From a virus (taxonomy: Duplodnaviria > Caudoviricetes): DNA of 40,557 nt. The translations under genes and the position numbers were made by a program. The stretch covers positions 1 through 40,557 of IMG/VR virus record IMGVR_UViG_3300035338_000018; one strand, given 5' to 3'. Each line of letters starts with the position of its first letter. Within the stretch, counting starts at the first letter, position 1. Under the pieces are notes generated by a model that saw nothing but the letters and a program-made list of their open reading frames with translations, was not told the DNA's origin and did not search any database. Shown here one piece after another: positions 1 to 39,050 of the stretch.

Positions 1-1590
1 TCAGCGGCAAGTCTTATATCTATTTTCTATATCTATTTCAATACTTGACTTAAATTCCACCTCAATTCTGTCATCATGCACCGTAACCCTTTCAATAAGC
101 CACCTTACTAATTGCTCATCATACTCCTCTAACTCGCAGGATTGCTCATTCAAGAAATCAGTCATTTCAGCGATTCGTTGCCTTTTTCCTTCTCGCTCTG
201 CATTTTCAACTAGTGCATTTTGCTTTAATTCTCGAAGGCGGTAAATTTCATCAGCCACATCATCATAGTCATTCTTGGACTTTGCTTGTATAAGAAGCTG
301 TTGCTGTAATTCTTCCAATTTACCATCAATATCATCGGTGGCATTATCATTTTCTTCATTAAATATAGTAGCTATATTTTTCTGTAGCGTCTGGAGGAAG
401 GGTTCTTTGTTGACCAAAAGTTCGTTTATAGCCTTAACAACTGCATTCTGCAATGTTTCCTCATTTATGGTAGGGGCAGTGCATTCAGAGTCCTTCTCCT
501 CCAATCGACTAACGCATCTCCAAACGATTGACTTGTAACCTCGGTTATTCCAATGTACCCGTCGGTAAATATCGCCGCAGTATCCGCAGTAAACAATACT
601 AGATAAAGCATACTTACTGCTGTAAACTCGCTTTCTACCACCCTTGCCGCTGCGAAGATTTGCTCTTCGAACCATCTCTTCTTGAACTTGCATAAAAAGC
701 TCACGTGGAATGATAGGCTCATGGCTATTTTCTACATAATACTGGGGAACGATGCCGTTATTCTTTACTCGCTTTTTAGAAAGGAAATCAACCGTATATG
801 TTTTTTGTAGAAGTGCATCACCAATGTATTTTTCGTTTTGCAGGATTTTCTTCAATGTTTCCGGCCTCCACTTAGGCTTATTGGCAGCCGTTAGGATACT
901 ATCTTTTTCAAGGCTCCTAGCAATCTGGGTCAGACTTGCTCCTTCCAGATATTCACGATAGATGCGTTTTACCACTTCCGCCTCCTCTGGAACAATCACC
1001 AGGTTTTTATTTTCATCCTTGGTATAGCCAAGAAAACGATTGTGGTTAACCTGAACCTCTCCGTTTTGATAGCGGTACTGCAATCCCAGCTTTACATTCT
1101 GACTAAGTGACTGACTTTCTTGCTGTGCCAAACTTGCCATGATGGTAAGCAGTACTTCACCCTTGGAGTCCATGGTATTTATTCCTTCTTTTTCGAAAAA
1201 TACGGGGATGTTTTTATCCTTTAGTTGACGGATGTATTTCAAACAATCCAATGTATTTCTTGCAAAGCGGCTGATGGACTTAGTGATAATCATATCGATA
1301 TTGCCTTTCATGCACTCTGCAATCATGCGGTTGAATTCCTCACGCTTTTTGGTATTGGTACCACTGATGCCATCATCGGCAAATATGCCCGCCATTTCCC
1401 ACTCATTATTTTTCTGTATAAACTGGGTATAATGCTCCACCTGCGCTTCATAGCTGGTAGCCTGCTCCTCACTATCCGTAGAAACACGGCAGTAGGCAGC
1501 GACCCTAAGCTTTGGTTTTTCTTCTAATTGTATCGTATTACCCACACGCTTTCGTGCGGGAATGACCGTAACATTTTTAGTTGCATTCAT
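1..1590 (-). CDS. Large serine recombinase (resolvase + recombinase + zinc ribbon)
   Basis: AAYCRVST catalytic motif, [22 protein letters not shown]...WRC zinc ribbon, coiled coil. Confidence 0.95.
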
Positions 1591-1593
1591 GTT

Positions 1594-2007
1594 TTACACC
1601 TCGCATTCGATTAAACTATAGGCATACTCTGCCTGTTGAAAGGGATTTGCATATTCCTCCTGAACCTTTGGAATGGTAAAAGACCTGGGGTTATAAGTCT
1701 TTATCGGCTCTACTTTTTCATACACCCTACCTAGTGCTTTTGCCCTTTTTAGGCGTTCCTCCTCTGCTTTTTCGAAGGTTGTCCTATCAATAATTGCAGG
1801 ATAATACTCATCACCAAGATATTTTCTATTCCGCAGCAACCTACCAGCACTGCCGTGGAACAGTTTCAGTCCTGCCTTTTCAGCCGCATCTTTAAGCGCC
1901 AACCCTGAAAGGTACCCCTCAAACAAGCCTCTGACCTGTTTTGCTTTGTTTTCATCAACAACTGCTATACCGTTTTCAATCCTATAGCCATAAGGTGTAT
2001 GTCCCAT
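1594..2007 (-). CDS. Small recombinase-domain protein lacking the catalytic resolvase domain
   Basis: PYGY...LLRNRKYLG...YPAII resembles the LSR DNA-binding recombinase domain; no YxRVS motif. Confidence 0.8.
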   Translation of the reverse strand: MGHTPYGYRIENGIAVVDENKAKQVRGLFEGYLSGLALKDAAEKAGLKLFHGSAGRLLRNRKYLGDEYYPAIIDRTTFEKAEEERLKRAKALGRVYEKVEPIKTYNPRSFTIPKVQEEYANPFQQAEYAYSLIECEV

Positions 2008-3570
2008 TTAATCCACCAGCCTCTCTTTAAGTTGCAGGCCACATTTCAATTCAAACACAATGTCTGTACTGGATAAAACCTTGATTTTTTCCACATGGGC
2101 AAGAAACGCTTCATCATCAAATTGGCTCACCATTTCACCTTTAGCTGTGAACTTTATCAACTTTTGAAGTTCATCTGCCTTGGTTCTATCTCCACCGATG
2201 GAATATACCATCTTTTCTTTTTCCTTTCGGAGCATTTCTGCCTCCATAGTTAGCCTGTTATTCTCTTTATTAAAAAGAACAGGGTCAAGGTATTTACTTG
2301 CCATTAGGCTTGTTAATACTTGGCGCTGTTCTGTATTTTTCTCAATTCGTGATTTAATTTCTTGTATTGCAGAAAATTTATCGTTATCATTTATGCTTTG
2401 CAAACTTTTCAGCAAAGGTTTTAATATAACCTGATGTCCAAAAGCCAACTTATTCATCATGGTTACAAATGCTTTTTTTATCATTTCGTCAGTGATGTAT
2501 TCCATAGAGCAATCCCTTATATTTTTAATGTGGTTGGAACAGCACCACACAACGTATGTACCTTTGGTCTGATACCGAATTCTGCGTTTAAAACTACTGC
2601 CGCACTCTGCGCACTTAATTCTGCCGGAAAAGGCATATCGATTCTGATATTTGGTACTTTGCTTTTCAATCCCTTTCTCTTTACCACGCTGCTCAAGTAC
2701 CGCATTAGCTTTTTCAAAATCATCATGGGTAATAATGGCTTCATGATGTCCTTTTACAAGGTACATATCCTGCTCTCCAAAATTAACATGGCGGTTAAAG
2801 CTACTATCCGTATACGTCTTTTGGAAAAGAGCATCCCCTGTATATTTCTCGTTTCCAATCAGTCGTGCTACCGTTTCAGCATACCATCTACCACCCTTTT
2901 TGCTTGGAACACCCCTTTTAGTCAAAGCAGTTGCAATAGTGTGTGTACCTTTCCCTGCCAGAACTTCTGCAAATATCTCTTTGACGATTTCAGCCTGTTC
3001 TGGCACAACCACCATTTCTCCATCTATATTTTTATAGCCGTAAGGCGGATAGGAAATTACATAGGTTCCGTTTTGAAAGCGTTTTCTAATACTCCATTTT
3101 TCATTTTCTGAAATGGATATGGATTCGTTTTCCGCAAGGCTACCTAATATAGAAAGCATGAGTTCACTTTCCATGGAACCAGTATCCAGGTTTTCTTTCT
3201 CGAAATATATAGAAATTCCTAAGGTTAGAAGTTTTCTAACCAGTTCCAGGCAATCTGTGACGTTTCTTGCAAAGCGGCTGATGGACTTGGTAATGATGAA
3301 GTCAATTTTTCCATGTTCACAATCCGTAATCATAGGAAGTAAACCTTGGCGCCTTTCTTTCTTGGTGCCAGAAATACCTGTATCATAATACAGCCCTGCA
3401 AATTCCCATTCTAGATTTCCTTTGATGTAGTTTTCATAGTGTTCCTTTTGTGCGTCCAAACTTTCAAGCTGTTCATCCTTAGCCGTTGACACACGACAAT
3501 AAGCTGCCACACGCAGTTTTTTGACTTGCATAAGCTCTTTGCTTTCATGAAGTTTTGTTATCCTTTTCAT
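2008..3570 (-). CDS. Large serine recombinase
   Basis: [27 protein letters not shown]...WCC; start moved to ATG 3570 (MKRITK) behind AGGAGG. Confidence 0.95.
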   Translation of the reverse strand: MKRITKLHESKELMQVKKLRVAAYCRVSTAKDEQLESLDAQKEHYENYIKGNLEWEFAGLYYDTGISGTKKERRQGLLPMITDCEHGKIDFIITKSISRFARNVTDCLELVRKLLTLGISIYFEKENLDTGSMESELMLSILGSLAENESISISENEKWSIRKRFQNGTYVISYPPYGYKNIDGEMVVVPEQAEIVKEIFAEVLAGKGTHTIATALTKRGVPSKKGGRWYAETVARLIGNEKYTGDALFQKTYTDSSFNRHVNFGEQDMYLVKGHHEAIITHDDFEKANAVLEQRGKEKGIEKQSTKYQNRYAFSGRIKCAECGSSFKRRIRYQTKGTYVVWCCSNHIKNIRDCSMEYITDEMIKKAFVTMMNKLAFGHQVILKPLLKSLQSINDNDKFSAIQEIKSRIEKNTEQRQVLTSLMASKYLDPVLFNKENNRLTMEAEMLRKEKEKMVYSIGGDRTKADELQKLIKFTAKGEMVSQFDDEAFLAHVEKIKVLSSTDIVFELKCGLQLKERLVD

Positions 3571-3595
3571 CCTCTCAACCTCCTTTCTGTCGGTC

Positions 3596-3626
3596 ACATA
3601 TTACCTCTGAAACCCCACTTTATCAA
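3596..3626 (-). promoter_or_regulatory. Promoter of recombinase operon
   Basis: TTGATA-17bp-TAATAT, -10 embedded in AGAGGTAATATGT. Confidence 0.6.
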
Positions 3627-3630
3627 GGTT

Positions 3631-3864
3631 TTAAGGCATTAGTTCAGCTAAAGAAGGAGAGAATGTTTTTCTATTTAACGCCGTGATTTTGTGGAATTCA
3701 TCCTCTGTAATCAATCCAGTTTCAAGCATAGATTTTAAAAACTTTTGAGCAAGGATGTAATCGTATTCCCGTTGCAGCTGTTCCTGTGACATCTTTTTTG
3801 CTTCACTCTTGTTATTGATGCTTTCCACAACTTTTGTTGTTTTCTTGTTTTCTATCTGATTCAT
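3631..3864 (-). CDS. SHOCT-like small protein preceding the recombinases
   Basis: MLETGLITEDEFHKI SHOCT-like motif; AGGAGG RBS; usual position in this module. Confidence 0.75.
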   Translation of the reverse strand: MNQIENKKTTKVVESINNKSEAKKMSQEQLQREYDYILAQKFLKSMLETGLITEDEFHKITALNRKTFSPSLAELMP

Positions 3865-3982
3865 TCACATACCCTCCTACCTTTTACCATTTCACCTTAA
3901 ATACACTTTGTAAAATTGATACATCTTTGTTTTTTCTCCCCAAATCTCAGTCAAAGAAAATCACGGTTTGTAAACCCCATAC

Positions 3983-4023
3983 AAAAAAATAATGCCTATG
4001 GAAATTTGATCTCCACAGGCATT
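3983..4023 (-). terminator. Intrinsic terminator after endolysin
   Basis: AATGCCTGTGGA...TCCATAGGCATT stem followed by a T7 run. Confidence 0.8.
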
Positions 4024-4031
4024 GCTTTGTT

Positions 4032-4715
4032 TTATTTCTTCTTTAATACCGGAATACTCCCCTTGCTCGTAATGTCGTAACCTACGGCCTCTGCAATATC
4101 TCTTATCTTCACGTAATTGGTACCATCCTTAAGAATACGATTTACTTCATAGGTCTTTCCATCAATCATGATCTTTGCCTGTTCCACCATCTCACCATCC
4201 ACCAGCCTTTCCTTCCACTTTTTCCATGCTGCTTTATTTTTTACAAAGGGTTTGGGACAAATCTTCCCAACCACATCAAAATGTCGAATGACGTTTTCTA
4301 CGGGAACATTGTATTTCTTCATCAACATTTGGCACAGCTTTGCTGCATTCATCAGCGTTGCCTCCGTAAAGTCAGACACACCATCTTTCTTGGTATCGCA
4401 TAGCTCTATGGAAATGCTATTGGCATTAGTGCATTTTCCGTACCAATTCCCACCCCCGGTTTTAGAGCAAGAGGGATATTTATCCCCACCAACACTCCAT
4501 GCGATATGGTTATCCGGCACACTCTGGATGATTTCCATATCATCAACAAAGTAGTGGGCCGATGCATTTACAATACGTTCTTTAAAATACCGCCCATTGG
4601 AAGCAGCTCGATCGCCATCATTTCCTGTATAGTGAATGACGATATAACGAATGGTGGATGTATTTCTTTTGCCACCATAATTATTCTGATTAGCAAGTAA
4701 ACTCTTAATCTCCAT
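4032..4715 (-). CDS. Endolysin, N-acetylmuramoyl-L-alanine amidase (Amidase_2) with C-terminal cell-binding domain
   Basis: YIVIHYT, ASAHYFVD, NSISIELC, RHFDV..KICP; start ATG 4715 after GAGGAGG. Confidence 0.92.
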   Translation of the reverse strand: MEIKSLLANQNNYGGKRNTSTIRYIVIHYTGNDGDRAASNGRYFKERIVNASAHYFVDDMEIIQSVPDNHIAWSVGGDKYPSCSKTGGGNWYGKCTNANSISIELCDTKKDGVSDFTEATLMNAAKLCQMLMKKYNVPVENVIRHFDVVGKICPKPFVKNKAAWKKWKERLVDGEMVEQAKIMIDGKTYEVNRILKDGTNYVKIRDIAEAVGYDITSKGSIPVLKKK

Positions 4716-4911
4716 TAGCGTCCTCCTCTTTTCCTTTTTGATACTGGGTACCAAAATAAAATGCCACTACTACGGAGAAGATGGTAAGAAACTGTTCTCC
4801 TGAAATTCTCCCTACGATGGATAAGTAAGAAAATACCATTGTCAGCAAAACGGTTACGATGCTTTTCACCGTCAATAAGTTTTGAATTGTAACTTTCGTT
4901 GTTTCATTCAT
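4705..4911 (-). CDS. Holin-like membrane protein
   Basis: 68 aa, two hydrophobic segments, FYFGTQ then charged tail, directly before endolysin. Confidence 0.75.
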   Translation of the reverse strand: MNETTKVTIQNLLTVKSIVTVLLTMVFSYLSIVGRISGEQFLTIFSVVVAFYFGTQYQKGKEEDANGD

Positions 4912-5185
4912 TGTGTGTCCCCCTTTCTTTTCTCCTCATTTTTCGTTGTTCCTGTCTTTTATCCTGTGCATCAGACCATCTTCGAAAAATGGTCATAACA
5001 CCGCAAATACCAAGTTCTGTGCCAAATACCCTCAGTGCACTATCTACTATGGCAGAACTATCTATACCGTGCTGGGCCTGGACCATTCCCCAGACGACAA
5101 CCAAAACACAGAAAATCAAAGAGGATTCCACAATCGTTGTCATGGTATCCCCGTTTATCTTCCATCTTTTCTTCATGCTATTCAC
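4904..5185 (-). CDS. Membrane protein in lysis cassette
   Basis: Hydrophobic segments, FGTELGICG motif, basic C-terminus. Confidence 0.6.
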   Translation of the reverse strand: MNSMKKRWKINGDTMTTIVESSLIFCVLVVVWGMVQAQHGIDSSAIVDSALRVFGTELGICGVMTIFRRWSDAQDKRQEQRKMRRKERGTHNE

Positions 5186-5459
5186 CCTCCCAGTTATGGG
5201 CGGATTGGTTCAGATGCTTCCCCAGCTTTTTATGAGCCTCCGTTACGCCCCCATTTGCCCCTAGCTGCTTCAAACCGTCAAGTGTCGCAAGTAATGCGAA
5301 ACAAATGATGCACTGCTCCTTTTTAATGTTCTGGATTTCTATGTCTTGCACTTTTTGCCGTTCCATCCAACGAAATGCCCGATACAAGATTACACCCAAA
5401 GTACCTATTGCTCCTGCCAGTGCAGCTAGCTTGATGATCATATCCCCGTTAATGTACAA
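5178..5459 (-). CDS. Holin/hemolysin-like membrane protein
   Basis: N-terminal TM helix, then EQCIICFALLATLDGLKQLGANG motif typical of Firmicute phage lysis cassettes. Confidence 0.6.
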   Translation of the reverse strand: MYINGDMIIKLAALAGAIGTLGVILYRAFRWMERQKVQDIEIQNIKKEQCIICFALLATLDGLKQLGANGGVTEAHKKLGKHLNQSAHNWEGE

Positions 5460-5485
5460 TTAACTCACCTTCTCCCATTTCCACC

Positions 5486-5581
5486 TTTATAATGGTGTGT
5501 GTTTCCTCATTTATAATAGTGTCTGTTTCTTCCTATTATATAGAGTCTGTTTCTTCCTTTATAATATAGTCCTTTTCCGCC
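5486..5581. repeat. Four degenerate 24-bp tandem repeats
   Basis: tttataatggtgtgtgtttcctca / tttataatagtgtctgtttcttcc / tattatatagagtctgtttcttcc / tttataatatagtccttttccgcc. Confidence 0.8.
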
Positions 5582-5679
5582 ACTGTAATTTTCCCATCGG
5601 CAACCATTTCATCTAGCCGTACCGTATCAATTTTTCCAGAAAAAAAGAGCCGTTTTAAGCTCTCTACCAATATCCTCAT
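5536..5679 (-). CDS. XkdX-like small tail-region protein (47 aa, not in ORF track)
   Basis: MRILVESLKRLFFSGKIDTVRLDEMVADGKITVAEKDYIIKEETDSI; ATGA overlap with upstream gene; GKIT..E motif. Confidence 0.75.
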   Translation of the reverse strand: MRILVESLKRLFFSGKIDTVRLDEMVADGKITVAEKDYIIKEETDSI

Positions 5680-6014
5680 AATATGCCTTCCTCCATCAGC
5701 TCCATGGTATAAGTATCAATGGCTTCATTTACAAGCTCACCTTGGGTTTTGTTGAGTGCTGCTTCAATACGATCCAACTGTGTGGGTTCGGGCATAGGTT
5801 TTGGTTCCGGAATAAACTCATGAAATCCTGCTGAGTCTGGCTCATAAACCCATCCAAGAACAACATCCTCCCCACAAAGCACAGCGGTTACTGAATTGCC
5901 TGTTGGATCTGGCGGCCAATATGGTTCTGTATCCTGTTCATGGAGGATACCAATCACTCTGTTCTGTAAAATCATTGCGTAATTCATTCTAACAAACCTC
6001 CCCTTACCACTCAA
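5676..6014 (-). CDS. Tail fibre assembly/chaperone-like protein
   Basis: Position after fibre gene; PEPTQLDRIE motif and acidic C-terminus. Confidence 0.6.
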   Translation of the reverse strand: MSGKGRFVRMNYAMILQNRVIGILHEQDTEPYWPPDPTGNSVTAVLCGEDVVLGWVYEPDSAGFHEFIPEPKPMPEPTQLDRIEAALNKTQGELVNEAIDTYTMELMEEGIL

Positions 6015-6747
6015 TCATAACAATACCATTTCCACCGGCGGAAGCTGAATTACTATCACTATGTGAGCCTCCACCGCCACCGCCATTTCCGGGTAACAGC
6101 TGTGAGGCACCACTGCCTCCCATGCCTAATGAGCCTCCACCACCGCCACCATCATTCATTAAAATACCACCGCTAGATATGCCATCCGTTCCATTTGATC
6201 CATCAACAGATGTGCCATTAGACGCTCTTGGTCCAGTACCCTCTCCACCATGACCTCCCCCTGTTCCTCCGGAAAGGCCTCCTCTATAAAATGCGCCACC
6301 AGTACCGCCAGGTAGTGTAATTAGATTGCCTATTACAGTGGAAGCACCAGTAGCCCCTGCAGTTGTGGTGAAATTGGGGTCGGAAGATTCTCCACTTCGA
6401 CCTGGAGCTCCTCCATTTCCAACGGTGATACTAATTACTTGTCCAGGATTGACGGCAAATGCCCTTTTTTCAATGCTTGCACCACCGCCACCTCCGCCTC
6501 CACCAGTGCCCCAGTTAAAACGTGTGTTTGCGCCACCGCCACCGCCTCCGCCAGCACAGGCTGTGACTAAAATTTTCTTAACGTTTGCCGGAACAGTGAA
6601 TGTTCCATTGGCGGTAAAAACTTTCACGCCACCCCAAAGACATTTTACATTATCGTCCACCTCTGAAAGAATCCTGTCCAAGGGCTTAAACCCCGTTGTC
6701 CCCAACGAGCTATTCAAAGCATATTTAATTCCTGACCAAAGCCCCAT
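6004..6747 (-). CDS. Glycine-rich tail fibre/adhesin
   Basis: FTANGTFTVP..V..ILVTACAGGGGGGG...GGNGIVMIEW glycine-rich domain. Confidence 0.75.
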   Translation of the reverse strand: MGLWSGIKYALNSSLGTTGFKPLDRILSEVDDNVKCLWGGVKVFTANGTFTVPANVKKILVTACAGGGGGGGANTRFNWGTGGGGGGGGASIEKRAFAVNPGQVISITVGNGGAPGRSGESSDPNFTTTAGATGASTVIGNLITLPGGTGGAFYRGGLSGGTGGGHGGEGTGPRASNGTSVDGSNGTDGISSGGILMNDGGGGGGSLGMGGSGASQLLPGNGGGGGGSHSDSNSASAGGNGIVMIEW

Positions 6748-7094
6748 TACACAAACACCTCCCGAATGCTGCCATCCTCCTGAAAGATTGTCTTTTTTGC
6801 GATTATTACGCCTTCTGTGTTGGTAAAGGTTTCTGTAATGGAACCATCCGCATTGAAAGTTGTAACCAATGGTTCCCCGGCTCCGTTCAATTCTGTAATA
6901 CTACCATCTTCATTGAACATGGTATTTGTTTCCTGAAATCCCTGTAGGGCCATAAAAACTTCACGATTTAAAACAGTACCATCTCTCGTAGGATTATCAG
7001 CTCTTTCAATGGTGGCATATTTTATGCCACCGCCTTCCTCTGTGATTTTGTATCTATTTGGTTTTTCTGCCAATCTATCTTGAAAATCCCTCAA
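6747..7094 (-). CDS. Tail/baseplate protein
   Basis: Tail module synteny; probable TTG start at 7094 overlapping upstream stop; repeated FNxDGSIxE. Confidence 0.6.
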   Translation of the reverse strand: MRDFQDRLAEKPNRYKITEEGGGIKYATIERADNPTRDGTVLNREVFMALQGFQETNTMFNEDGSITELNGAGEPLVTTFNADGSITETFTNTEGVIIAKKTIFQEDGSIREVFV

Positions 7095-7525
7095 TATAAA
7101 CCTTCTCCTTCTCCACAAGTTGTTGTTCCACAATATCTTCTTGTCTTTTGCATCTGACGAATGCTTTTTTCAATCTCAACAAAGACTTTTTCTATGTTGT
7201 TCGCTGCGATATAATCCAGGCCATCCATAGTGTGGGGTAACGGAATGCCTAAATCAAAAAAAGAGTCCCGGCATTTATGCACTTGTGAGAGGTAATATTC
7301 CATTTCTTCTAATAGAGGTATTTCACCATCCATATAATCTGTACGAAAAGTACCAACAATGGGATAACCAGCATTAATACCAATGAGTCGCATTTCCTCC
7401 GCAGCAGTACCCACACGGTTTAGGTCACTTGCATTATAGGTCCCTTTTTCATTTTGGCTAAGGACATCTCCCAGTGTTCTATCTGTTATTAGCTCTGTTG
7501 TCATAACTGTCGTCGTTTCTGCCAT
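7091..7525 (-). CDS. Tail/baseplate protein
   Basis: LITDRT...KGTYNASDLNRV motif seen in Firmicute phage tails; synteny. Confidence 0.6.
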   Translation of the reverse strand: MAETTTVMTTELITDRTLGDVLSQNEKGTYNASDLNRVGTAAEEMRLIGINAGYPIVGTFRTDYMDGEIPLLEEMEYYLSQVHKCRDSFFDLGIPLPHTMDGLDYIAANNIEKVFVEIEKSIRQMQKTRRYCGTTTCGEGEGLY

Positions 7526-9084
7526 CAGTCTAACCCCCTCCCGGTGATGGTTCCTGTTAGGCCTTCTGTATCAAAGGTAAGCGAATGTGTCATAACAATG
7601 ACCTTACTTTTTGTAAAATCATTCTGAATCGTGAGGCTATCTGCCGCCTCAATACTCATATCCCCTCTATAATCCACAGTGTGTGTTAAACGAAGGTTCT
7701 TGAAATCCATATAAGCCTGTGCAACTTCTGCTGCCTGTGATTCGGAACATATATAATAGGAAGTAATACTTAATTGTTGCCCGTCATCCTCATCTTCTGT
7801 TACAGTTACATCCGCGCCTTTTAAGGTACTATTAGTGCTATCCCAGTAATAATAGCGCACAGTGCAGGACGTATATCTTTCCCCCATACTGATACTAGGC
7901 TTGCTCCACATATTTTCATAATCGATATCATTGGTCATAACCTCAGGCAATTTCCACTTCTTTAAGGAATAGCTCCCGTCTCGTTCAAATTTCCAATAAC
8001 CGCAACAAGCAATGGCCAGATATGCCATGGCTGTATGAATGGGAATATCATCCCCTATGTACTGATTGACCTGTATATTTTTCAATTCTTCCTCAATGAC
8101 GACAGTTTCTTGAATATTCGCAAACAAAATAGATACAGCTTCTGCTACCGTTTGCAGCCCTCGTCCTTCATTTTTATAATTCCCTAGTTCAAAAGCAATG
8201 GAAGGTCTGCAATATACTTTGGCTTCATTGGGTTGGTCTGTTTTTGGAAAAGAATACAGATAAAACTGTCCCATACCAATGCTGTCCGTCCTCGCCCCTA
8301 CAATTAAATCCAGCTTTGGTACCGTTTTCATTTTCTGCCGCAGAAAGGATGCAAAGCCATCGGGGTTGATAATATTAAACTCATTATCCGTATTATCAAA
8401 CACCAAAGTAGTCTCTGGAAACCGAAGGGACGAGCTAAAAGGGTCAATGCTTTCCTCAAAATCAAACTGAAAAATCCCCTCCGATGCAAAGGAAAGAATG
8501 ATACCAGGTACAATCTGGCTCACCTTACAATACCGCAGCCCTTTGTTCCATTTCTTAAAAGAAAACACAAGCTTTTTGACATTACGCTGCCGGATTTCTG
8601 TATAAAATAAGGCTTTGTTATTGATAAAAGAAAGAGATGAGAGTAAATTCCCATCACCATCATAGGCCTTGATATCCAACTTTTCAGCCCATTCTCTGCC
8701 CAAATCATCAAAAGCAATCGAAACCCCTGCAATGTCATAAAGGGCATCAAATGTATAAGTCACTTCTTCTGCTGGTGAGAAATAACCCTCGCTATCACAC
8801 ATCCCCGCAGAAAAAAAACCAATCTGCTGTGCATTGTTCTTTGGAATAAAAGATACGCTGCCATCCAGAACAATTCTTTTATGTTCCAATGTCCCCCAGT
8901 TGGCATCCATACCAAAGGAACCGTTCTTCAACTGCTCCACATGACTGACCGTATGGGTTGGCGTGGTGGAAACCTCTGCACCTTCCGTAGCACCAGGAGG
9001 AACGAAAGAAAGCTCTGCCCTACACTGTATCAATTCTGTATCCCCTTTGATATTTTCCTTATATTTATCACTCGTCTGTATCAT
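7525..9084 (-). CDS. Tail tip/baseplate hub protein
   Basis: About 520 aa ORF two genes after TMP; C-terminal DYRGD...E..D motif. Confidence 0.65.
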   Translation of the reverse strand: MIQTSDKYKENIKGDTELIQCRAELSFVPPGATEGAEVSTTPTHTVSHVEQLKNGSFGMDANWGTLEHKRIVLDGSVSFIPKNNAQQIGFFSAGMCDSEGYFSPAEEVTYTFDALYDIAGVSIAFDDLGREWAEKLDIKAYDGDGNLLSSLSFINNKALFYTEIRQRNVKKLVFSFKKWNKGLRYCKVSQIVPGIILSFASEGIFQFDFEESIDPFSSSLRFPETTLVFDNTDNEFNIINPDGFASFLRQKMKTVPKLDLIVGARTDSIGMGQFYLYSFPKTDQPNEAKVYCRPSIAFELGNYKNEGRGLQTVAEAVSILFANIQETVVIEEELKNIQVNQYIGDDIPIHTAMAYLAIACCGYWKFERDGSYSLKKWKLPEVMTNDIDYENMWSKPSISMGERYTSCTVRYYYWDSTNSTLKGADVTVTEDEDDGQQLSITSYYICSESQAAEVAQAYMDFKNLRLTHTVDYRGDMSIEAADSLTIQNDFTKSKVIVMTHSLTFDTEGLTGTITGRGLD

Positions 9085-16439: not shown

Positions 16440-17685
16440 CATCTCCTTTAACAGCTGTAGCTGCAAAAATACCTGCGTCCTCCAATTTTGTTTGGTTCCC
16501 GTTTATTAAGAAAAAATTTCCTCCTTTTTCCTCCGGGATAAGGTCCAAATTTTCAAGAGACCGTATATCATTGGCTGACATCCAGCCATTCTGTCTGCCT
16601 ATGGCATAACCGTTCATACGGCTTTGGTAATCGCCCCGCAAAAGCCCGTCAACATTATATTTAATAAAATACTTCTGTTTTTCCTTGGGCGAAAGTAAAG
16701 AGCGTACCATGGACTGCTCCCACCGTACAAGCCAAGGCTCTAGGGTGTATTTCACAAACTCCAGGGACTGCTCCTCAATATTAGAAAAGCTCGCCTTCTC
16801 CAAATCACCAACCATGTGGGGCGGGATACGGAAAATTCGAGCTATCTCGTTAATCTGAAATTTTCTTGTTTCTAAAAACTGTGCCTGTTCCGGGGAAATG
16901 GCAATGGGAGTATATTTCATCCCCTCCTCCAAGACGGCAACCTTGCTAGAATTACTGCTGCCACCAAAGGTAGCATTCCAACTCTCACGAATACGAGCGG
17001 GGTCTTTCAATGTTCCAGGATGCTCCAGAACACCACCGGGCGCTGCACCGTTGGCAAAGAACTTTGCTCCGTACTCCTCACAGGCGATTGCCATGCCGAT
17101 AGCATTCTTGGCCATAGCGATTGGAGAATACCCAACCAAGCCATCAAAACCAAGCCCGGGAATATGCAGCACCTCCGATGATTTCAGGATAGCAGTGGAC
17201 CCTTTCATAGTTGGTGCTTCATCTTTGCTAGATTGATATTGATAATAAAGCTGTCCATTGGCATCTCTATCCACCGTCATTCGGTTTGGCATCAGAGGAT
17301 AAAGGGCTATAACCTCACCTTTGCCATTTCGGATAATTTGCGCATAGGCGTTCCCCCACAAAAGAAGATGTGTCATTAAGGTTTCTCTGAAAACAAAGGA
17401 AGTCATCTCCGGGTTCGGTTCATCGTGTAGGAGAAAATACAATGGATGGCTGATCGCTTTTTCTTTGCCGCCTGTATCTGTGTATTGATAAAGATGGATT
17501 GGCAATCCGGCAACCGCCTCAGCTAATATTCGCACACAAGAATACACAGCCGTCATCTGCATTGAGGAACGCTCATTCACAGGCTTTCCTGCTGTTGTTC
17601 CACCAAAGAAAAAGCGGTAGGAACTGCCAGTGGTGCTGTTTGTGGGTTTGTCTCTTGACTTGAAAAGTCCGCTTAAAATACTCAT
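16324..17685 (-). CDS. Portal protein, HK97 family
   Basis: AVYSCVRILAE, LLLWGNAY, GYSPI, IARIFRIPPH; start moved to 17685. Confidence 0.95.
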   Translation of the reverse strand: MSILSGLFKSRDKPTNSTTGSSYRFFFGGTTAGKPVNERSSMQMTAVYSCVRILAEAVAGLPIHLYQYTDTGGKEKAISHPLYFLLHDEPNPEMTSFVFRETLMTHLLLWGNAYAQIIRNGKGEVIALYPLMPNRMTVDRDANGQLYYQYQSSKDEAPTMKGSTAILKSSEVLHIPGLGFDGLVGYSPIAMAKNAIGMAIACEEYGAKFFANGAAPGGVLEHPGTLKDPARIRESWNATFGGSSNSSKVAVLEEGMKYTPIAISPEQAQFLETRKFQINEIARIFRIPPHMVGDLEKASFSNIEEQSLEFVKYTLEPWLVRWEQSMVRSLLSPKEKQKYFIKYNVDGLLRGDYQSRMNGYAIGRQNGWMSANDIRSLENLDLIPEEKGGNFFLINGNQTKLEDAGIFAATAVKGDDEENEEVLEVDEPDGSESGDAGADTGEDAVSQRHHRRR

Positions 17686-17761: not shown

Positions 17762-18658
17762 TTATTCTTCTTGTAACATCGATAAATACATATCAAGCCG
17801 TTCGTTGACATAACCTGCAAACAACTTTTCCATTGCCGATAAATCATGTTTCACATGGTATGCATCAAAGGCTCCATAATACGCAATTCGATCGGCAAAC
17901 TTAATGTCAATGGGAGGATATCCTGCTTTCATCAATTCAAGATTAACAAGAAGCCGCCCTGTTCTGCCGTTCCCATCAATGAATGGATGTATACTTTCAA
18001 ATTCAATGTGAAATCTAGCCAAACGAGGAATGATGTGCTCTGTACTTTTGCTATATCCTTGTAAGAGCTGCTCCATGCGAGGTTCTATCAAATACGGCTG
18101 CACCGGCTCATGTTTCGCCCCCATAATACGCACTGGGACTCGACGATAAACCCCACGGTCATCTTTTTTATCAGCCAAAATCAAATAGTGAATCTGCTTT
18201 ATGATGTTTTCAGTCATAGGTGCATTTTCTTTTACTAGCTCTCTAACAAAACTGAATGCCTCTTTGTGTCCAACGGCCTCCAAATGATCTTTTAAAGGTT
18301 TTTTATCAATGGTCAGACCTCGTAAAACCATATCTGTTTCGCGTAAAGTAAGGGTGTTTCCCTCAATTGCATTTGAATTGTAGGTGTATTCAATGATAAA
18401 TTCTTCTGTTAGCCGTTCAACCTCTCCTTCTGTTAGGGGGCGTCGAAAATCCAGTTCGTGCTTTTTCTTGTCAATCAACTCAAGGAGATTTGCGGCCGTT
18501 TTATATCTTCCATCCACAGGCTTTACAGCGTTTTCTGGAATATTCCACCCGCGTCCGACCTGAAATGCACCAGGAATTTTTCCTTCGGCACAAAGAATTC
18601 TAACTCGTCTATCAGAAATGCCCCATTTTTCAGCAGCTTGCTTTACCGTTATATACAT
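17762..18658 (-). CDS. Fic-domain protein with N-terminal excisionase/MerR-like HTH
   Basis: Canonical HPFIDGNGRTGR; SNAIEGN inhibitory motif; N-terminal TVKQAAEKWGISDRRV HTH. Confidence 0.92.
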   Translation of the reverse strand: MYITVKQAAEKWGISDRRVRILCAEGKIPGAFQVGRGWNIPENAVKPVDGRYKTAANLLELIDKKKHELDFRRPLTEGEVERLTEEFIIEYTYNSNAIEGNTLTLRETDMVLRGLTIDKKPLKDHLEAVGHKEAFSFVRELVKENAPMTENIIKQIHYLILADKKDDRGVYRRVPVRIMGAKHEPVQPYLIEPRMEQLLQGYSKSTEHIIPRLARFHIEFESIHPFIDGNGRTGRLLVNLELMKAGYPPIDIKFADRIAYYGAFDAYHVKHDLSAMEKLFAGYVNERLDMYLSMLQEE

Positions 18659-29288: not shown

Positions 29289-29708
29289 TTATGTTTCCTC
29301 CTTCAAGTCTTCTGTAAAGTAGCGAATTGTCATTTTCTTACGCCTGGCCTTGTCAATCTCCGCTTTCATGCCATTTGAGATCACATTTCCAAAAACCCAA
29401 ACTTCACAGCACTTACCCATAAGTACCATATTCATAAACAAGGCGAGACCTCTTTCTTTTGGATTTTCATCATCCATAAACTGCGGAAACAGTAAATGTG
29501 GCGCTAGTGGTATGCAGTTTCTCGTAACAACAAATTTGCAGAACTCACGAGCCTTTTTGATATTATTTTCCATATCCCCAGAGAACGGGGAACAGATATA
29601 TACCAACGGCTTAAATGCGGCCTTCTTTTCTTCTTTTTCCACCCTGGTCAAAGCCTCATATGTAGTCGGGTCATAATAACCCACACTGTTGAATTTATTT
29701 ATACTCAT
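29289..29708 (-). CDS. DUF4406-like nucleoside deoxyribosyltransferase-fold protein
   Basis: VYICSPFSGD, PLAPHLLFPQF, SNGMKAEI. Confidence 0.75.
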   Translation of the reverse strand: MSINKFNSVGYYDPTTYEALTRVEKEEKKAAFKPLVYICSPFSGDMENNIKKAREFCKFVVTRNCIPLAPHLLFPQFMDDENPKERGLALFMNMVLMGKCCEVWVFGNVISNGMKAEIDKARRKKMTIRYFTEDLKEET

Positions 29709-33433: not shown

Positions 33434-33795
33434 TACAGCACCTCCGCATCCGCAAGCAGCGCCTCATAATTTTTAGGATCGATTTCAGACAGCTTATCTG
33501 CCCCGTGCTTAATAAGGAGTTCCTTAACTGCTGCCGTATGACCTTTACGGGATTTTTCAGCAAGAACCGCTCTCACATCTTCAAGGTTTGCAACAGGCTT
33601 ATCATCCTTCTGTTGAGAAGTTTCTTCTCCAGAACGACTTGTTTCCTTTGCTTGCGCTTTTACAACTTTCTGCGGCTCCCTCTCCAAAGCTTCCATAGCA
33701 GGTGAATCTTTTGTCTGTTCTACGATTGCTATCAACGTCAGCGATAATCTGTTTAAGTCCCGGGCCAAGTCGTTTATCAATGCTAATGGTGTCAT
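33433..33795 (-). CDS. Conserved phage protein preceding DUF2800
   Basis: LEDVRAVLAEKSR.G.T..VKELL.KHGA.KLS.IDP..Y motif; GGAGGG RBS. Confidence 0.8.
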   Translation of the reverse strand: MTPLALINDLARDLNRLSLTLIAIVEQTKDSPAMEALEREPQKVVKAQAKETSRSGEETSQQKDDKPVANLEDVRAVLAEKSRKGHTAAVKELLIKHGADKLSEIDPKNYEALLADAEVL

Positions 33796-34117
33796 GATTT
33801 ATCCCCTCCAAATTCGAATCATAAAATCTGATATCTATTCCAAGTTCCATAGCTCTTTTGATTTCCAGCTGCATGCCTTCTGTAACCTCATTACATACAA
33901 CCCACATCTCTGAGCAATTTTTCATAAGCTCCAAGCCCATTTGAATTCCAAGCAGGCGTTCAGCTTCTTTGCTATCATCCAAAAACTGCGGGAATATTAA
34001 ATGAGGAGCCACCGGCACTTTGCCACATCTTGAAATGATGTATGCTGTCCGCTTTGCCAGCTCTATGTTTTTCTCTACATCGCCTCTATATGGCGAGCAC
34101 AAAAATGTCATTTTCAT
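33602..34117 (-). CDS. Second DUF4406-like protein
   Basis: FLCSPYRGD, PVAPHLIFPQF, TEGMQLEI. Confidence 0.75.
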   Translation of the reverse strand: MKMTFLCSPYRGDVEKNIELAKRTAYIISRCGKVPVAPHLIFPQFLDDSKEAERLLGIQMGLELMKNCSEMWVVCNEVTEGMQLEIKRAMELGIDIRFYDSNLEGINHDTISIDKRLGPGLKQIIADVDSNRRTDKRFTCYGSFGEGAAESCKSASKGNKSFWRRNFSTEG

Positions 34118-34923: not shown

Positions 34924-35256
34924 ATGAAGAATACTTTAGGAGGAAGGATTTCTGAATTATTACAAAAAAATGGATTGACTCAACGAGAGCTTGCTGAACA
35001 GGTTGGCGTAACCGAGGTCTCTATGTCCAGATATATTAGCGGTGACCGAACTCCAAAAGGCCCTGTCATTGCCAATATAGCGACTGCACTGCACACTACT
35101 TCCGATTACCTATTAGGAACAGAAGCAACCGGCGATTTTGAAAGTGAATACTACAAAATTCATCGGTTAATTGCACGCAACGCACCAAACATGTCGACTG
35201 CACAGAAACGCGAACTTGTTAATGCCCTTTTTGAGTCCGACGATCAGGAAGGATGA
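34924..35256 (+). CDS. XRE-family repressor (ImmR-like)
   Basis: GLTQRELAEQVGVTEVSMSRYISGDRTP, DYLLG; GAGGT RBS. Confidence 0.9.
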   Translation: MKNTLGGRISELLQKNGLTQRELAEQVGVTEVSMSRYISGDRTPKGPVIANIATALHTTSDYLLGTEATGDFESEYYKIHRLIARNAPNMSTAQKRELVNALFESDDQEG

Positions 35257-35263
35257 TTATTTT

Positions 35264-35839
35264 TTGTATTTACCGGACACTACTCGGTATGATGAGATTA
35301 AACGTGAAGTTCTTTATATGTATGAAGAATGCGAGGTCTATACATACCCCATTAACTGCTTTGAGATTGCAAAAAAGCTTTGCTATATACTAATGCCTTA
35401 TTCCCAACTAACGGACCATCAACTCAGACTTGCAATGGAATATAGCCCTGATGGTTTTTCCTTACTTAGAAAAATGCCAGACACAGGTATGTTTCGTTGG
35501 TATATTTTTTACAATGATAATAGCTGCTACGAAAGGCAACGCTGGACTATCCTTCACGAAATAGGCCATATATACCTTGGTCATCTTGAACCAAATTGTC
35601 AATTGGCCTCTACAGAAAAAGAAGCAGAAGCCAACTTCTTTGCCAAGTACAGTATTGCCCCACCACCACTAATAAATTACACAAATTGCAGCTGTCCAAA
35701 GGACGTAGCCAACCGCTTTCATGTGTCCAATCAGGCTTCCATTTATCTGTTTGATTACTATCAGAAATGGTTGCAATTCGGTCCAAAAAAATATGAGCAA
35801 TTTGAATTTGCAATGATAGTTAGGTTCCTACCTGCATAA
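35264..35839 (+). CDS. ImmA/IrrE-family metallopeptidase (anti-repressor)
   Basis: RQRWTILHEIGH (HExxH), EKEAEANFFA; probable TTG start after AGGAAGGA. Confidence 0.88.
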   Translation: MYLPDTTRYDEIKREVLYMYEECEVYTYPINCFEIAKKLCYILMPYSQLTDHQLRLAMEYSPDGFSLLRKMPDTGMFRWYIFYNDNSCYERQRWTILHEIGHIYLGHLEPNCQLASTEKEAEANFFAKYSIAPPPLINYTNCSCPKDVANRFHVSNQASIYLFDYYQKWLQFGPKKYEQFEFAMIVRFLPA

Positions 35840-35999: not shown

Positions 36000-38900
36000 T
36001 TATACCACCATATTTACACTCATGAGTTCAGCCTGCTTAATAACAGTTTCAATTGCATCCTTCGCCTGATCTGGTGGGTACTTATATTTGCGCAACAGAT
36101 GCTTAATCTGAGTTCGCATATAAGCTCGCGCTGATTGTTTTTTATCCCAATCAACAGTCCTGCTTTTTTGAATAAGTGCCGTCAACTCATGGGCCATCTC
36201 AACAAGTATTGAATCTTCCATATTTCTAAGTACTTCCGGATCAGCAACAAGCGCATCATAAAACGCCAATTCCTCCGGCGACAAGCCTTTCTCATCACCT
36301 GCAGCATAAGCTTCCGTCATTTCCTTCGAAAGATTTAGAAGTTCCTCAATGACCTCCGCACTGGTTATCATTCTATTATTGTATCGTTTTAGTACATCTT
36401 GCATTTTTTCTGAAAAAAGCTGTGCCTTTACAACACCTGTCCTTGCAAACACTCTAATATTATCTTCTAACAGGCTACGCAACATTTCTGCAGCTATATT
36501 TTTATGCTTCATTTTGCGCACTTGAGCCATATATTCATCTGACAATAAGGAAATCTCAGGATTTTTCTGACCAGATTGTTCAAAGATATTAACCACACCA
36601 TCCTGTTTGATAGCTTGTTCAAGCATCTTCATAATGCGAGCATTAATCTCGTTGGATGTAATCTTCCCTTTGCCACCAACTTTACAAAGTCCAGCCTTTA
36701 CACATTTGAAAAATTCAATTTCTTTTTTATCATGTTCATCCATAAGACTACGACAAAGTGTCTCGGCTTGACTAAGCGCTGTCGCTTCCTTAATGTATTC
36801 CTTCGATTCATCTTCTTCAAATCCAAGAGCAAATTCCACACCATCAGCGATCACTTTCAATCGCTGCATATCAGATTCTCCAAAAAAACCGTTGTAATTA
36901 AAGCCATAGAACATATCACGCATAACTTCCAGTTTTGCCATCGCAATAGAATAAGCAATACCAAGATCCGGTACCTTGTCCTGATCTCTCTTTGTATATT
37001 GATTCAATGCAGCTTTTAATTCTGCTGCCATTCCTATGTAATCAACAATCAGTCCCGCTTCTTTATCTTTATATACCCTGTTTACACGAGCTATGGCCTG
37101 CATAAGATTGTGGCCTTTCATTGGCTTATCTATATACATTGTTGCCATTGAGGGAACATCAAATCCTGTTAGCCACATATCTACAACGATAGCAATCTTA
37201 AAATCACTGTTGTTATCCTTAAATTCAATCATTAAACCGTCTCGATATGCTTTGTTCCCTATAATATCATGCCAATCTTCTGGGTCCTGATTGCTTGATG
37301 TAAGAACCACTTTAACTTTTTTATCCCATTCAGGACGTTTCTCTAATAGTGTCTTGTACAAATTGATTGCTATACGCCGAGTCATACAAACAATCATTGC
37401 CTTACCCGTCAAAACATATTGGCGATCCTCATAGTGAGCAATAATATCATCAGCCAACATATTCAGACGATCCGAAGATCCAACAATCGCTTCAATGCCT
37501 GAAAGATCCGTTTTCGATTTCTCTATTTCAATTTCCGTGGACTCTCCCGCTAATTCCGCGTATTCTTTATCTATTTGTTTCAATATATCTTCATTAAGTT
37601 TAAGCTTTGGTGTTCTATTTTCATAATAAATCGGTACCGTTGCACCATCATCCACTGCTTGTGTCATATCATAAATATCTATGTACTTACCAAACACCTC
37701 AATAGTAGACTTGTCCTTCATGTCAATTGGAGTTCCAGTAAAACCAATGAATGTAGCGTTTGGAAGAGCGTCACGCATATGTTTTGCCATACCGTATTTC
37801 CATTCACCAGTTTCTCTATCGAGTTTAGCTTCCATGCCATACTGAGAACGATGTGCTTCATCCGCCATGAAGATAATATTGCTACGATCGTTGATAATGT
37901 CATTACCTTCCTCAAACTTCTGAATGGTAGTGAATACAATTCCTCCAGCCTTAACCTTTAATAGTTCCTTTAATCCATTAGGCTTTCCACTTCTACACTC
38001 TGCCTGCTTCGGTGTCTGACGCAAAAGCAGCTTTGAACTGGCACTGAAAGTTCCAAAGAGCTGATTGTCCAGATCGTTACGATCAGTGAGCACTACGATA
38101 GTTGGATTCTCAAATTCCGGATCACTAACAACAATACCGGAATAGAATACCATTGATAAGCTTTTGCCGCTGCCTTGGGTATGCCAAACAACACCGACCT
38201 TACGGCTCTTTTCTTTTAATGCTTTTCTAGTGCTTTCCACCGCCTTGCGCACTGCAAAATACTGGTGGTAGCCAGCCAATATTTTTATAGTTTTTCCTTG
38301 TATATCCTGAAATACAATGAAGTTTCGGATGATATCCAACAACCGTTTTTTAGGAAACATCCCGTTAAGCGCTACAGTAAAAAAATCTGTCATATTTTCC
38401 GCAGGCTTTTCCCCATCCTCTGACTTCCATGCCATGTAACGGGTATAGTCAGATGTAATGGTTCCCACTCTAGTATCAATACCATCGCTGATAACATTAA
38501 ATGCATTGTACTTGAACAAGGAAGGAATATCCAGCTGATAATTCTTAACCTGCATGTAAGCTTGTTCAACTGTGGTGTTATCATTTGCCATATTTTTTAA
38601 TTCAAAAAGAATCATAGGAATTCCATTGATGAACACCAAAATGTCTGGACGTTTATTCTTATACTCAATAATTGTGTATTGATTTATGACTTTAAAATCA
38701 TTTAAAGTTGGATTATCAAAATCTATTAATTTTACAGTGAATGTACGATTTTCCTTATCTTTCTGGTATGGTATTGGCACTCCTTCCACAATATACTTAT
38801 GAAAGGATGCATTTAGGTCCTCTACTCTCAAAAGCCCTAGGTTCTTTATTTCCTTATAGGCTTCAGAAATTATTTCTTGAGTTATACCAGAATTTATATT

Positions 38901-39050
38901 TAACATTGAAGCTCGAAAGCAATCCTCCAAGATTACCTCATGATAGTCTCGGTCGATGTCTGGGCCATATACATATTCATAACCTTTTTCCTGAAGCTCT
39001 GAAATAATAGCTTGTTCTAATGTATTCTCATTAATTGGCACTGTTTTCAC
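36000..39050 (-). CDS. hsdR: Type I restriction endonuclease subunit R
   Basis: RPDI...NGIP...ELK nuclease, WHTQGSGKS, DEAH, FTGTP, MWLTGFD, QAIARVNR. Confidence 0.95.
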   Translation of the reverse strand: MKTVPINENTLEQAIISELQEKGYEYVYGPDIDRDYHEVILEDCFRASMLNINSGITQEIISEAYKEIKNLGLLRVEDLNASFHKYIVEGVPIPYQKDKENRTFTVKLIDFDNPTLNDFKVINQYTIIEYKNKRPDILVFINGIPMILFELKNMANDNTTVEQAYMQVKNYQLDIPSLFKYNAFNVISDGIDTRVGTITSDYTRYMAWKSEDGEKPAENMTDFFTVALNGMFPKKRLLDIIRNFIVFQDIQGKTIKILAGYHQYFAVRKAVESTRKALKEKSRKVGVVWHTQGSGKSLSMVFYSGIVVSDPEFENPTIVVLTDRNDLDNQLFGTFSASSKLLLRQTPKQAECRSGKPNGLKELLKVKAGGIVFTTIQKFEEGNDIINDRSNIIFMADEAHRSQYGMEAKLDRETGEWKYGMAKHMRDALPNATFIGFTGTPIDMKDKSTIEVFGKYIDIYDMTQAVDDGATVPIYYENRTPKLKLNEDILKQIDKEYAELAGESTEIEIEKSKTDLSGIEAIVGSSDRLNMLADDIIAHYEDRQYVLTGKAMIVCMTRRIAINLYKTLLEKRPEWDKKVKVVLTSSNQDPEDWHDIIGNKAYRDGLMIEFKDNNSDFKIAIVVDMWLTGFDVPSMATMYIDKPMKGHNLMQAIARVNRVYKDKEAGLIVDYIGMAAELKAALNQYTKRDQDKVPDLGIAYSIAMAKLEVMRDMFYGFNYNGFFGESDMQRLKVIADGVEFALGFEEDESKEYIKEATALSQAETLCRSLMDEHDKKEIEFFKCVKAGLCKVGGKGKITSNEINARIMKMLEQAIKQDGVVNIFEQSGQKNPEISLLSDEYMAQVRKMKHKNIAAEMLRSLLEDNIRVFARTGVVKAQLFSEKMQDVLKRYNNRMITSAEVIEELLNLSKEMTEAYAAGDEKGLSPEELAFYDALVADPEVLRNMEDSILVEMAHELTALIQKSRTVDWDKKQSARAYMRTQIKHLLRKYKYPPDQAKDAIETVIKQAELMSVNMVV

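Follow-up and report, generated by a model that had tools for sequence, protein, structure and literature searches.

This locus raises the question of why a prophage should carry two complete large serine recombinase genes with two small genes beside them. The window, i.e. the whole stretch of DNA analysed, is one virus record of 40,557 nucleotides (IMGVR_UViG_3300035338_000018; Caudoviricetes) with the replication, packaging, head, tail and amidase genes of a tailed prophage. Four genes, denoted S, A, M and B, follow these on the minus strand, and the module that they form terminates at window base 1. Comparison with relatives points, with somewhat better than even probability, to the following overall explanation: S-A-M-B would be a module for integration and excision at the 3' end of the rRNA methyltransferase gene rlmD, in which A and B would split the recognition of half-sites, an extended phage attachment site (attP) would hold a larger complex, and S would serve as the switch.

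The four genes and their conservation

The open reading frames (ORFs) span positions 3631-3864 (S), 2008-3597 (A), 1594-2007 (M) and 1-1590 (B). For A the most likely start is the ATG at 3570, behind an AAGGAGG site, rather than the GTG at 3597, because the GTG falls on the -10 box of a promoter-like site. The stop codon of A abuts the start codon of M (TAA-ATG) and a gap of three bases separates M from B, as had been stated, and this spacing suggests that translation of A, M and B is coupled.

Both A (2008..3570; 520 amino acids, catalytic serine S28) and B (1..1590; 529 amino acids, S37) have what defines a large serine recombinase (LSR). The Resolvase, Recombinase and Zn_ribbon_recom domains are each above the Pfam cut-off, and the YCRVS motif, the SRFAR motif and four zinc cysteines are in place, with the catalytic serine and arginine among them. 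The two proteins are 38% identical over 412 amino acids, which argues against a recent duplication, and they sit in separate clades of the tree. M (1594..2007), as already claimed, has the Recombinase domain alone (23 bits compared to the Pfam cut-off of 21.1). Neither Pfam nor the structure model showed a catalytic resolvase domain, the hallmark of an LSR that M lacks, or a zinc ribbon. The predicted model of M aligned with 9dxd_A over 93 residues (Z 10.8, root-mean-square deviation 2.6). Relative to A, this domain of M (residues 1-93) is trimmed of a 9-residue wing and a hairpin of ~27 residues. The protein had no match among PDB sequences. It ends in a conserved tail helix (residues 122-135) with no known match; a weak test among 11 candidates found no fusion of this tail to a longer protein.

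S (3631..3864), predicted to be a helical hairpin, belongs to SHOCT_2 (PF20612; 69.6 bits compared to a cut-off of 24). The classical SHOCT family stayed below its cut-off, so that the earlier label "SHOCT-like" applies in the sense of SHOCT_2. Fold searches with S gave a best Z of 5.5 and nothing at E <= 0.001; matches to known directionality factors stayed within background. In their family consensus, the N-termini of S and A (window 3631-3864 and 2008-3570) have a short T-K-I stretch in common, a possible shared docking strand.

A search for M-like proteins of 75-240 amino acids returned 874. Among 160 M loci, A was full in 125, B in 114, S was present in 129, and all four genes were complete in 89. 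Where the contig left room, 28 of 38 metagenome loci were complete, and A-M-B continued in 66 of 67 S loci. The catalytic serine, both SRFAR arginines and the four zinc cysteines were kept in 90 of 90 complete modules, in A and B alike. The median ratios of nonsynonymous to synonymous substitution rates (dN/dS), computed over pairs that are not independent, were 0.132 for S, 0.088 for A, 0.127 for M, 0.121 for the M tail and 0.058 for B. Judged by these counts and ratios, the four genes are co-conserved and under purifying selection, and M is a working gene with a trimmed recombinase domain. The first-pass annotation had named a lack of such co-conservation as grounds for giving up its proposal; the four-gene module proved to be real in this respect as well.

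The B gene of the window is a mosaic, with residues 1-250 being 96-100% identical to those of relative L001 and residues 250-500 being 92-100% identical to those of L025. Its final few residues derive from a one-base deletion near window position 21, common to L025 and L038. An att junction at the 3' end of B is thereby ruled out, the feature being this deletion ahead of a terminator. A split att site was likewise ruled out as the source of the 5'-truncated A genes seen in some relatives, whose breakpoints are scattered from residue 44 to residue 512.

Some further observations concern the spread of the module. Modules of nine loci (L088, L090, L093, L094, L096, L099, L100, L102, L105) are 92-98% identical in DNA and come from Clostridium, Bacillus, Ureibacillus, Robertmurraya, Ligilactobacillus and Anaeromicropila, a recent wide spread. 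An identical A-truncated unit followed by a pair of major facilitator superfamily (MFS) and ATP-binding cassette (ABC) efflux genes (L146, L147, L149, L150) occurs in Anaerobium, Lachnospiraceae and a Brevinema bin. A phage with two recombinases of 406 and 521 amino acids (L080:3418-5160, L293, L295, L296, L298) uses recombinase genes themselves as its target: its end falls exactly on the N-E-K-Y codons of an A or B gene in S-A-M-B modules.

The target gene and the extended attP

To map the target, 16 genome regions around intact modules were fetched. A junction with rlmD was located at the far (left) end of the prophage in 13 of them, inverted beside the module (right) in one, and absent in two. 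Twelve elements with both ends defined were 50.9-59.2 kb long and inserted at the 3' end of rlmD (rumA). Inside these 12 elements A and B are the sole LSRs, and no tyrosine recombinase was found by Pfam in any of the 10 delimited elements checked (an additional regular-expression test was weak). The insertion point in the relatives is the His codon of an H-V-E stretch of rlmD, with the phage supplying a replacement gene end, and flank changes and symmetry place the presumed crossover at the CA of this codon. An 8-base match at the same rlmD site is described for a related phage in PMC10269897, and rum is presented as a known insertion hotspot in PMC5053989 and PMC13693407. For the family, then, integration of the module at rlmD is very probable. 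For the window it is likely, with the target taken from the relatives; no near relatives of the window ends were found, and in reads over window positions 1-8000 no joint was seen that would mark an att site. In the 12 att-bearing modules closest to that of the window in the C-terminal half of B, a P arm with B-type copies near -55 and -94 follows within about 7 kb past B.

Stacked at the same rlmD site are also lone serine recombinase genes whose sequence runs into the att core (L276, L284, L162:38598-40346). Other small elements stacked at rlmD att sites carry serine recombinases of 306-316 amino acids that end before the zinc ribbon (L107:16364-17290, L111:12208-13128, G002, L261, L403), some of them beside P'-type arrays; these are possible satellites. 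An A-truncated unit with metal-transport cargo shows two different non-rlmD flanks directly after the CA core (L142/L148 compared to L144; att arm near 16692, 16692 and 8303, respectively; left end undefined).

In the relatives the half-sites P and P' are symmetric about the CA, and B' is like P'. The pattern common to these three has GAC at 24 and CTC at 7-5 from the centre. The B half-site, which lies in the rlmD codons D-M-F-P-x-T, differs from it at inner and outer positions. Three half-sites are thus alike and the fourth, in the coding frame of the host gene, is different, which is the arrangement of CcrA/CcrB-type systems.

The attP reaches about 135 bases to the left of the centre and 250 to the right (~390 in total). 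The left arm holds the B half-site in 2-3 copies that are helically phased. The right arm has a single inverted B copy, which lies mostly at 130, 140, 150 or 160, and beyond it 2-3 direct repeats of the P' pattern with a spacing of ~30 (mostly 29-31) bases. In the P arms first found, at least one B-type copy was present in 33 of 33, where chance predicts 0.063 per 130 bases; across all loci taken together, a copy was present in 60 of 60 and two or more in 53, 32 of these loci having been chosen by a pattern that requires two. The distances of the B copies cluster at 44, 54-56, 64-66, 84, 92-98, 104-108 and 113-119. For distinct distances the Rayleigh test gave p = 1.7e-4 at a period of 10.2, with no signal at periods 7-9 or 11-15. 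The P'-type repeats carry 12.8 bits of information compared to 6.1-6.2 bits when shuffled.

The arrays go together with the module. Among 32 viral left arrays chosen by DNA alone, 24 lay behind M and B and one behind B at the edge of the flank, and no other recombinase type was found upstream of the 32. Right arrays with a core had B or B-M-A within 5 kb in 14 of 21 cases. Phi-m46.1 occupies this rlmD site as well, with a recombinase pair but without M, and contains neither array, and no B copies were found at the single-recombinase end of phi1605. Such controls are few. Other two-recombinase loci were uninformative, since most of their contigs end at the module. Over two sets of loci with 8 kb of downstream sequence, an automatic count detected att arms in 30 of 50 and in 8 of 19, a count that misses some arms seen otherwise; in one repeat search 51 of 76 matches were unrelated repeats and were dropped. 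The present analysis adds the tie between the module and both attP arrays, the three-plus-one logic of the half-sites and the separate S leader described below; neither rlmD as the target nor the extended attP had been visible to the first-pass annotation.

On some viral contigs (L398, L409, L412, L413, L415, L417, L264) P was joined to P' and both arrays were present; these sites may represent excised phage or tandem insertion. The joined attP of G021-G023 could not be demonstrated to be free phage, there being no end repeats and tandem accretion fitting too.

A possible mechanism and its rivals

A terminator-like hairpin (3991..4023, minus strand; 15 pairs and a T-rich tail) parts the lysin gene from S, which is preceded by its own leader (3865..3990, minus strand). 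Between S and A lies a predicted sigma-70-like promoter, TTGATA-17-TAATAT (3598..3626, minus strand), which would drive A-M-B; a site of this kind recurs in 23 of 36 representative modules under a strict search. There is no promoter of M's own between A and B. Thus A, M and B are predicted to form one transcription unit, with S separate. The S leader recurs before or within replication genes in 6 of 8 relatives (E <= 5e-4); no clear second copy was found in the window itself. This points to a lytic-type leader and would favour S, not M, as the induced switch. Because M is predicted to be co-transcribed with A and B, it is likely a subunit rather than a switch. The earlier proposal that the small proteins set direction hence fits S, with its own leader, and does not obviously fit M.

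In the mechanism that we propose, one enzyme would read the coding B half-site and the other the three alike half-sites. We consider such split recognition, by analogy with CcrA and CcrB, fairly probable, the assignment of A to the coding half-site being a guess. In serine recombinase chemistry each subunit cuts one strand. If the cutting tetramer is mixed, both A and B need their own serine, which would explain why it is retained in both. Additional A and B subunits would bind the extra half-sites, which are moderately likely to be bound and functionally relevant. M would be a non-cutting DNA-binding subunit that, with A and B, builds a wrapped complex, and this complex would raise efficiency or check the presence of both phage ends; action of M at the extra sites is a tentative idea, short of an even chance. 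S, made from the lytic-type promoter, would switch the reaction to excision, and we give even chances to S being the directionality factor. The first-pass annotation had envisaged a heteromer on different half-sites, and the idea of subunits on different half-sites gains real support: in relatives one half-site indeed differs, both enzymes keep their catalytic residues and CcrA/CcrB provide a precedent. A doubtful extension would be a serine-recombinase counterpart of the lambda intasome, with two catalytic types, a non-cutting subunit, a ~390-base attP bearing two kinds of phased arm sites, and SHOCT_2 as a new class of directionality factor.

A number of observations weigh against this explanation. 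Of the 12 delimited elements, seven belong to a single close family, which leaves about six independent lineages. The att sites of the window lie beyond the record and were not seen, and L001, the closest relative for S-A-M, has no att arm within its record. Seven of the 32 array loci had no upstream recombinase (three with less than 2.1 kb at hand, four with 10 kb), and the control without M is one phage, Phi-m46.1. A 5'-deleted A without S was present in 18 of 160 loci, the 20 S-less loci holding 18 truncated A genes. The C-terminal half of B has been swapped between lineages, the window included, which makes tight A-B or M-B contacts specific to each lineage less likely in that half. In a first pass over 43 modules, covariation with the P arm favoured the B zinc ribbon (rho 0.79). 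Among 28 dereplicated modules the P arm tracked the B zinc ribbon (rho 0.60) and the coiled coil (0.59) equally, and the B-type copy likewise tracked recombinase B (rho 0.40-0.43); the equal tracking means that linkage explains the covariation, which therefore assigns neither enzyme to a half-site. Finally, in the gin system of B. cereus GirC and GirX suffice and the girAB pair is dispensable, as described in PMC5595907.

Among the rival explanations, a plain CcrAB-like pair acting on sites of ~50-60 bases would leave the extra half-sites as functionless scars of repeated insertion or local duplication. Stacked elements do accumulate at rlmD ends, hybrid sites are common, and the copy number varies from 2 to 3. 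We nevertheless regard scars as unlikely, given that the copies stop before the crossover, hold their helical phase across diverged lineages, and occupy fixed places on both arms, diverging among themselves yet keeping the motif. Another possibility is that B alone cuts and A is retained to run the reaction in reverse or to regulate it, the two working in turn with no shared tetramer. The unlikeness of the B half-site to the other three at inner and outer positions, and the predicted promoter common to A, M and B, make this improbable. B is more conserved than A (dN/dS 0.058 compared to 0.088), and the two non-rlmD flanks of the A-truncated metal-transport unit (L142/L148 compared to L144) are explicable by B acting without full A; these flanks, however, fit A as the rlmD specificity subunit equally well.

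The roles of the small proteins could also be exchanged: M would act as the directionality factor, or as a dominant-negative brake by sitting on half-sites, and S would have some other job. A recombinase domain without catalysis could compete for sites, and the structural match of S to known directionality factors does not rise above background (best Z 5.5). M, on the other hand, lies directly between A and B without a promoter to itself and so would not be switched on alone, while the separate lytic-type leader (6 of 8 relatives) belongs to S, which is tied to the module; we rate this exchange as quite improbable. Lastly, the module of the present prophage might be a leftover or an inactive chimera: its B gene is mosaic and carries a late frameshift, decayed modules are common, and the att sites of the window were not seen. 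With four frames and all catalytic and zinc residues intact, and no match to other integrase families among the 50 window ORFs scanned, this appears very improbable.

Elsewhere in the window, positions 36000-39050 encode a type I restriction subunit HsdR, a cargo gene at the far end, and 34924-35839 (plus strand) an XRE repressor and metalloprotease pair, likely an immunity module. A helix-turn-helix (HTH) and Fic-like protein is encoded at 17762-18658 between the terminase and portal genes, and the replication region holds two nucleoside 2-deoxyribosyltransferase-like genes (29289-29708 and 33602-34117).

Comparison with known systems

Part of the value of classical large serine integrases is that they work without auxiliary DNA or proteins. 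If the proposed explanation is true, that rule would be extended by a common family in which recognition is split, one subunit is dead and the arm sites are phased. The control of two-recombinase systems (e.g. CcrAB) would become testable with defined sites in E. coli. The explanation would also account for the presence of one phage family, with defence and resistance cargo, at a single conserved site across Clostridia, Bacilli and lactobacilli; LSR mining by single enzymes and 50-base sites would miss the S-A-M-B family. The literature, with subscription papers, the SMphage paper and supplements outside its scope, yielded no test of the S-A-M-B module and no account of the arrays. Further sources cited are PMC11470126, PMC10581047 and bioRxiv 2024.08.21.608926.

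Like CcrA and CcrB, A and B are two large serine recombinases of one operon. In both cases the target gene encodes an rRNA methyltransferase and is entered at its 3' end, the half-sites are of the three-plus-one kind, and tandem accretion occurs. In SCCmec, CcrA is described as reading the coding half-site only, three half-sites being alike and one coding (PMC13739063, PMC10018568). The two-enzyme part therefore has a precedent, and the view of the first-pass annotation that no mechanism had been worked out needs amending to that extent. CcrAB is described as needing no element cofactors and using sites of ~60-70 bases, and its control is called poorly understood in PMC12286644. Unlike CcrA/CcrB, the relatives use rlmD rather than rlmH, the module sits on a prophage, and M, S and phased extra half-sites are added. 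A and B are not members of those families either, scoring 72-138 bits compared to NCBIfam equivalog cut-offs of 700-900.

The streptococcal prophages Phi1207.3, Phi-m46.1 and the SMphages similarly have a recombinase pair behind the lysin, their second enzyme grouping with B, and Phi-m46.1 uses the same rlmD site. Their first enzyme, however, has ~410 amino acids, there is no M, and Phi-m46.1 is without both arrays. For Phi1207.3 it was proposed that two resolvases cooperate (PMC4260502), and SMphages use three types of integration module according to a review, S-A-M-B possibly among them. The streptococcal integrative and conjugative element (ICE) triplets of the Tn1806 and ICESsuYZDH1 types also have three tandem recombinase-family genes. 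The first-pass annotation had taken such Firmicute triplets for the same arrangement, which does not hold: in the published descriptions (PMC4701971, PMC12942858) all three genes carry the catalytic domain, whereas the middle gene here does not, and their targets are mutT, hsdM, traG and snf2. The gin system of B. cereus (GirA, GirB, GirC, GirX) resembles the module in having several serine recombinases, with a tiny directionality factor; unlike here, no recombinase-domain-only gene is described in the available text of PMC5595907.

With the classical integrases (phiC31, Bxb1, A118/LI, SPbeta) A and B share the domain order, and the outer attP motif at 17-24 from the centre matches in position the zinc-ribbon motif of the LI integrase (16-24; PMC3783163). 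The same source describes the classical phage systems as one enzyme acting on sites of 40-50 bases with no auxiliary DNA. The present family, in contrast, has two co-conserved enzymes, an asymmetric bacterial attachment site (attB) and a patterned attP of ~390 bases.

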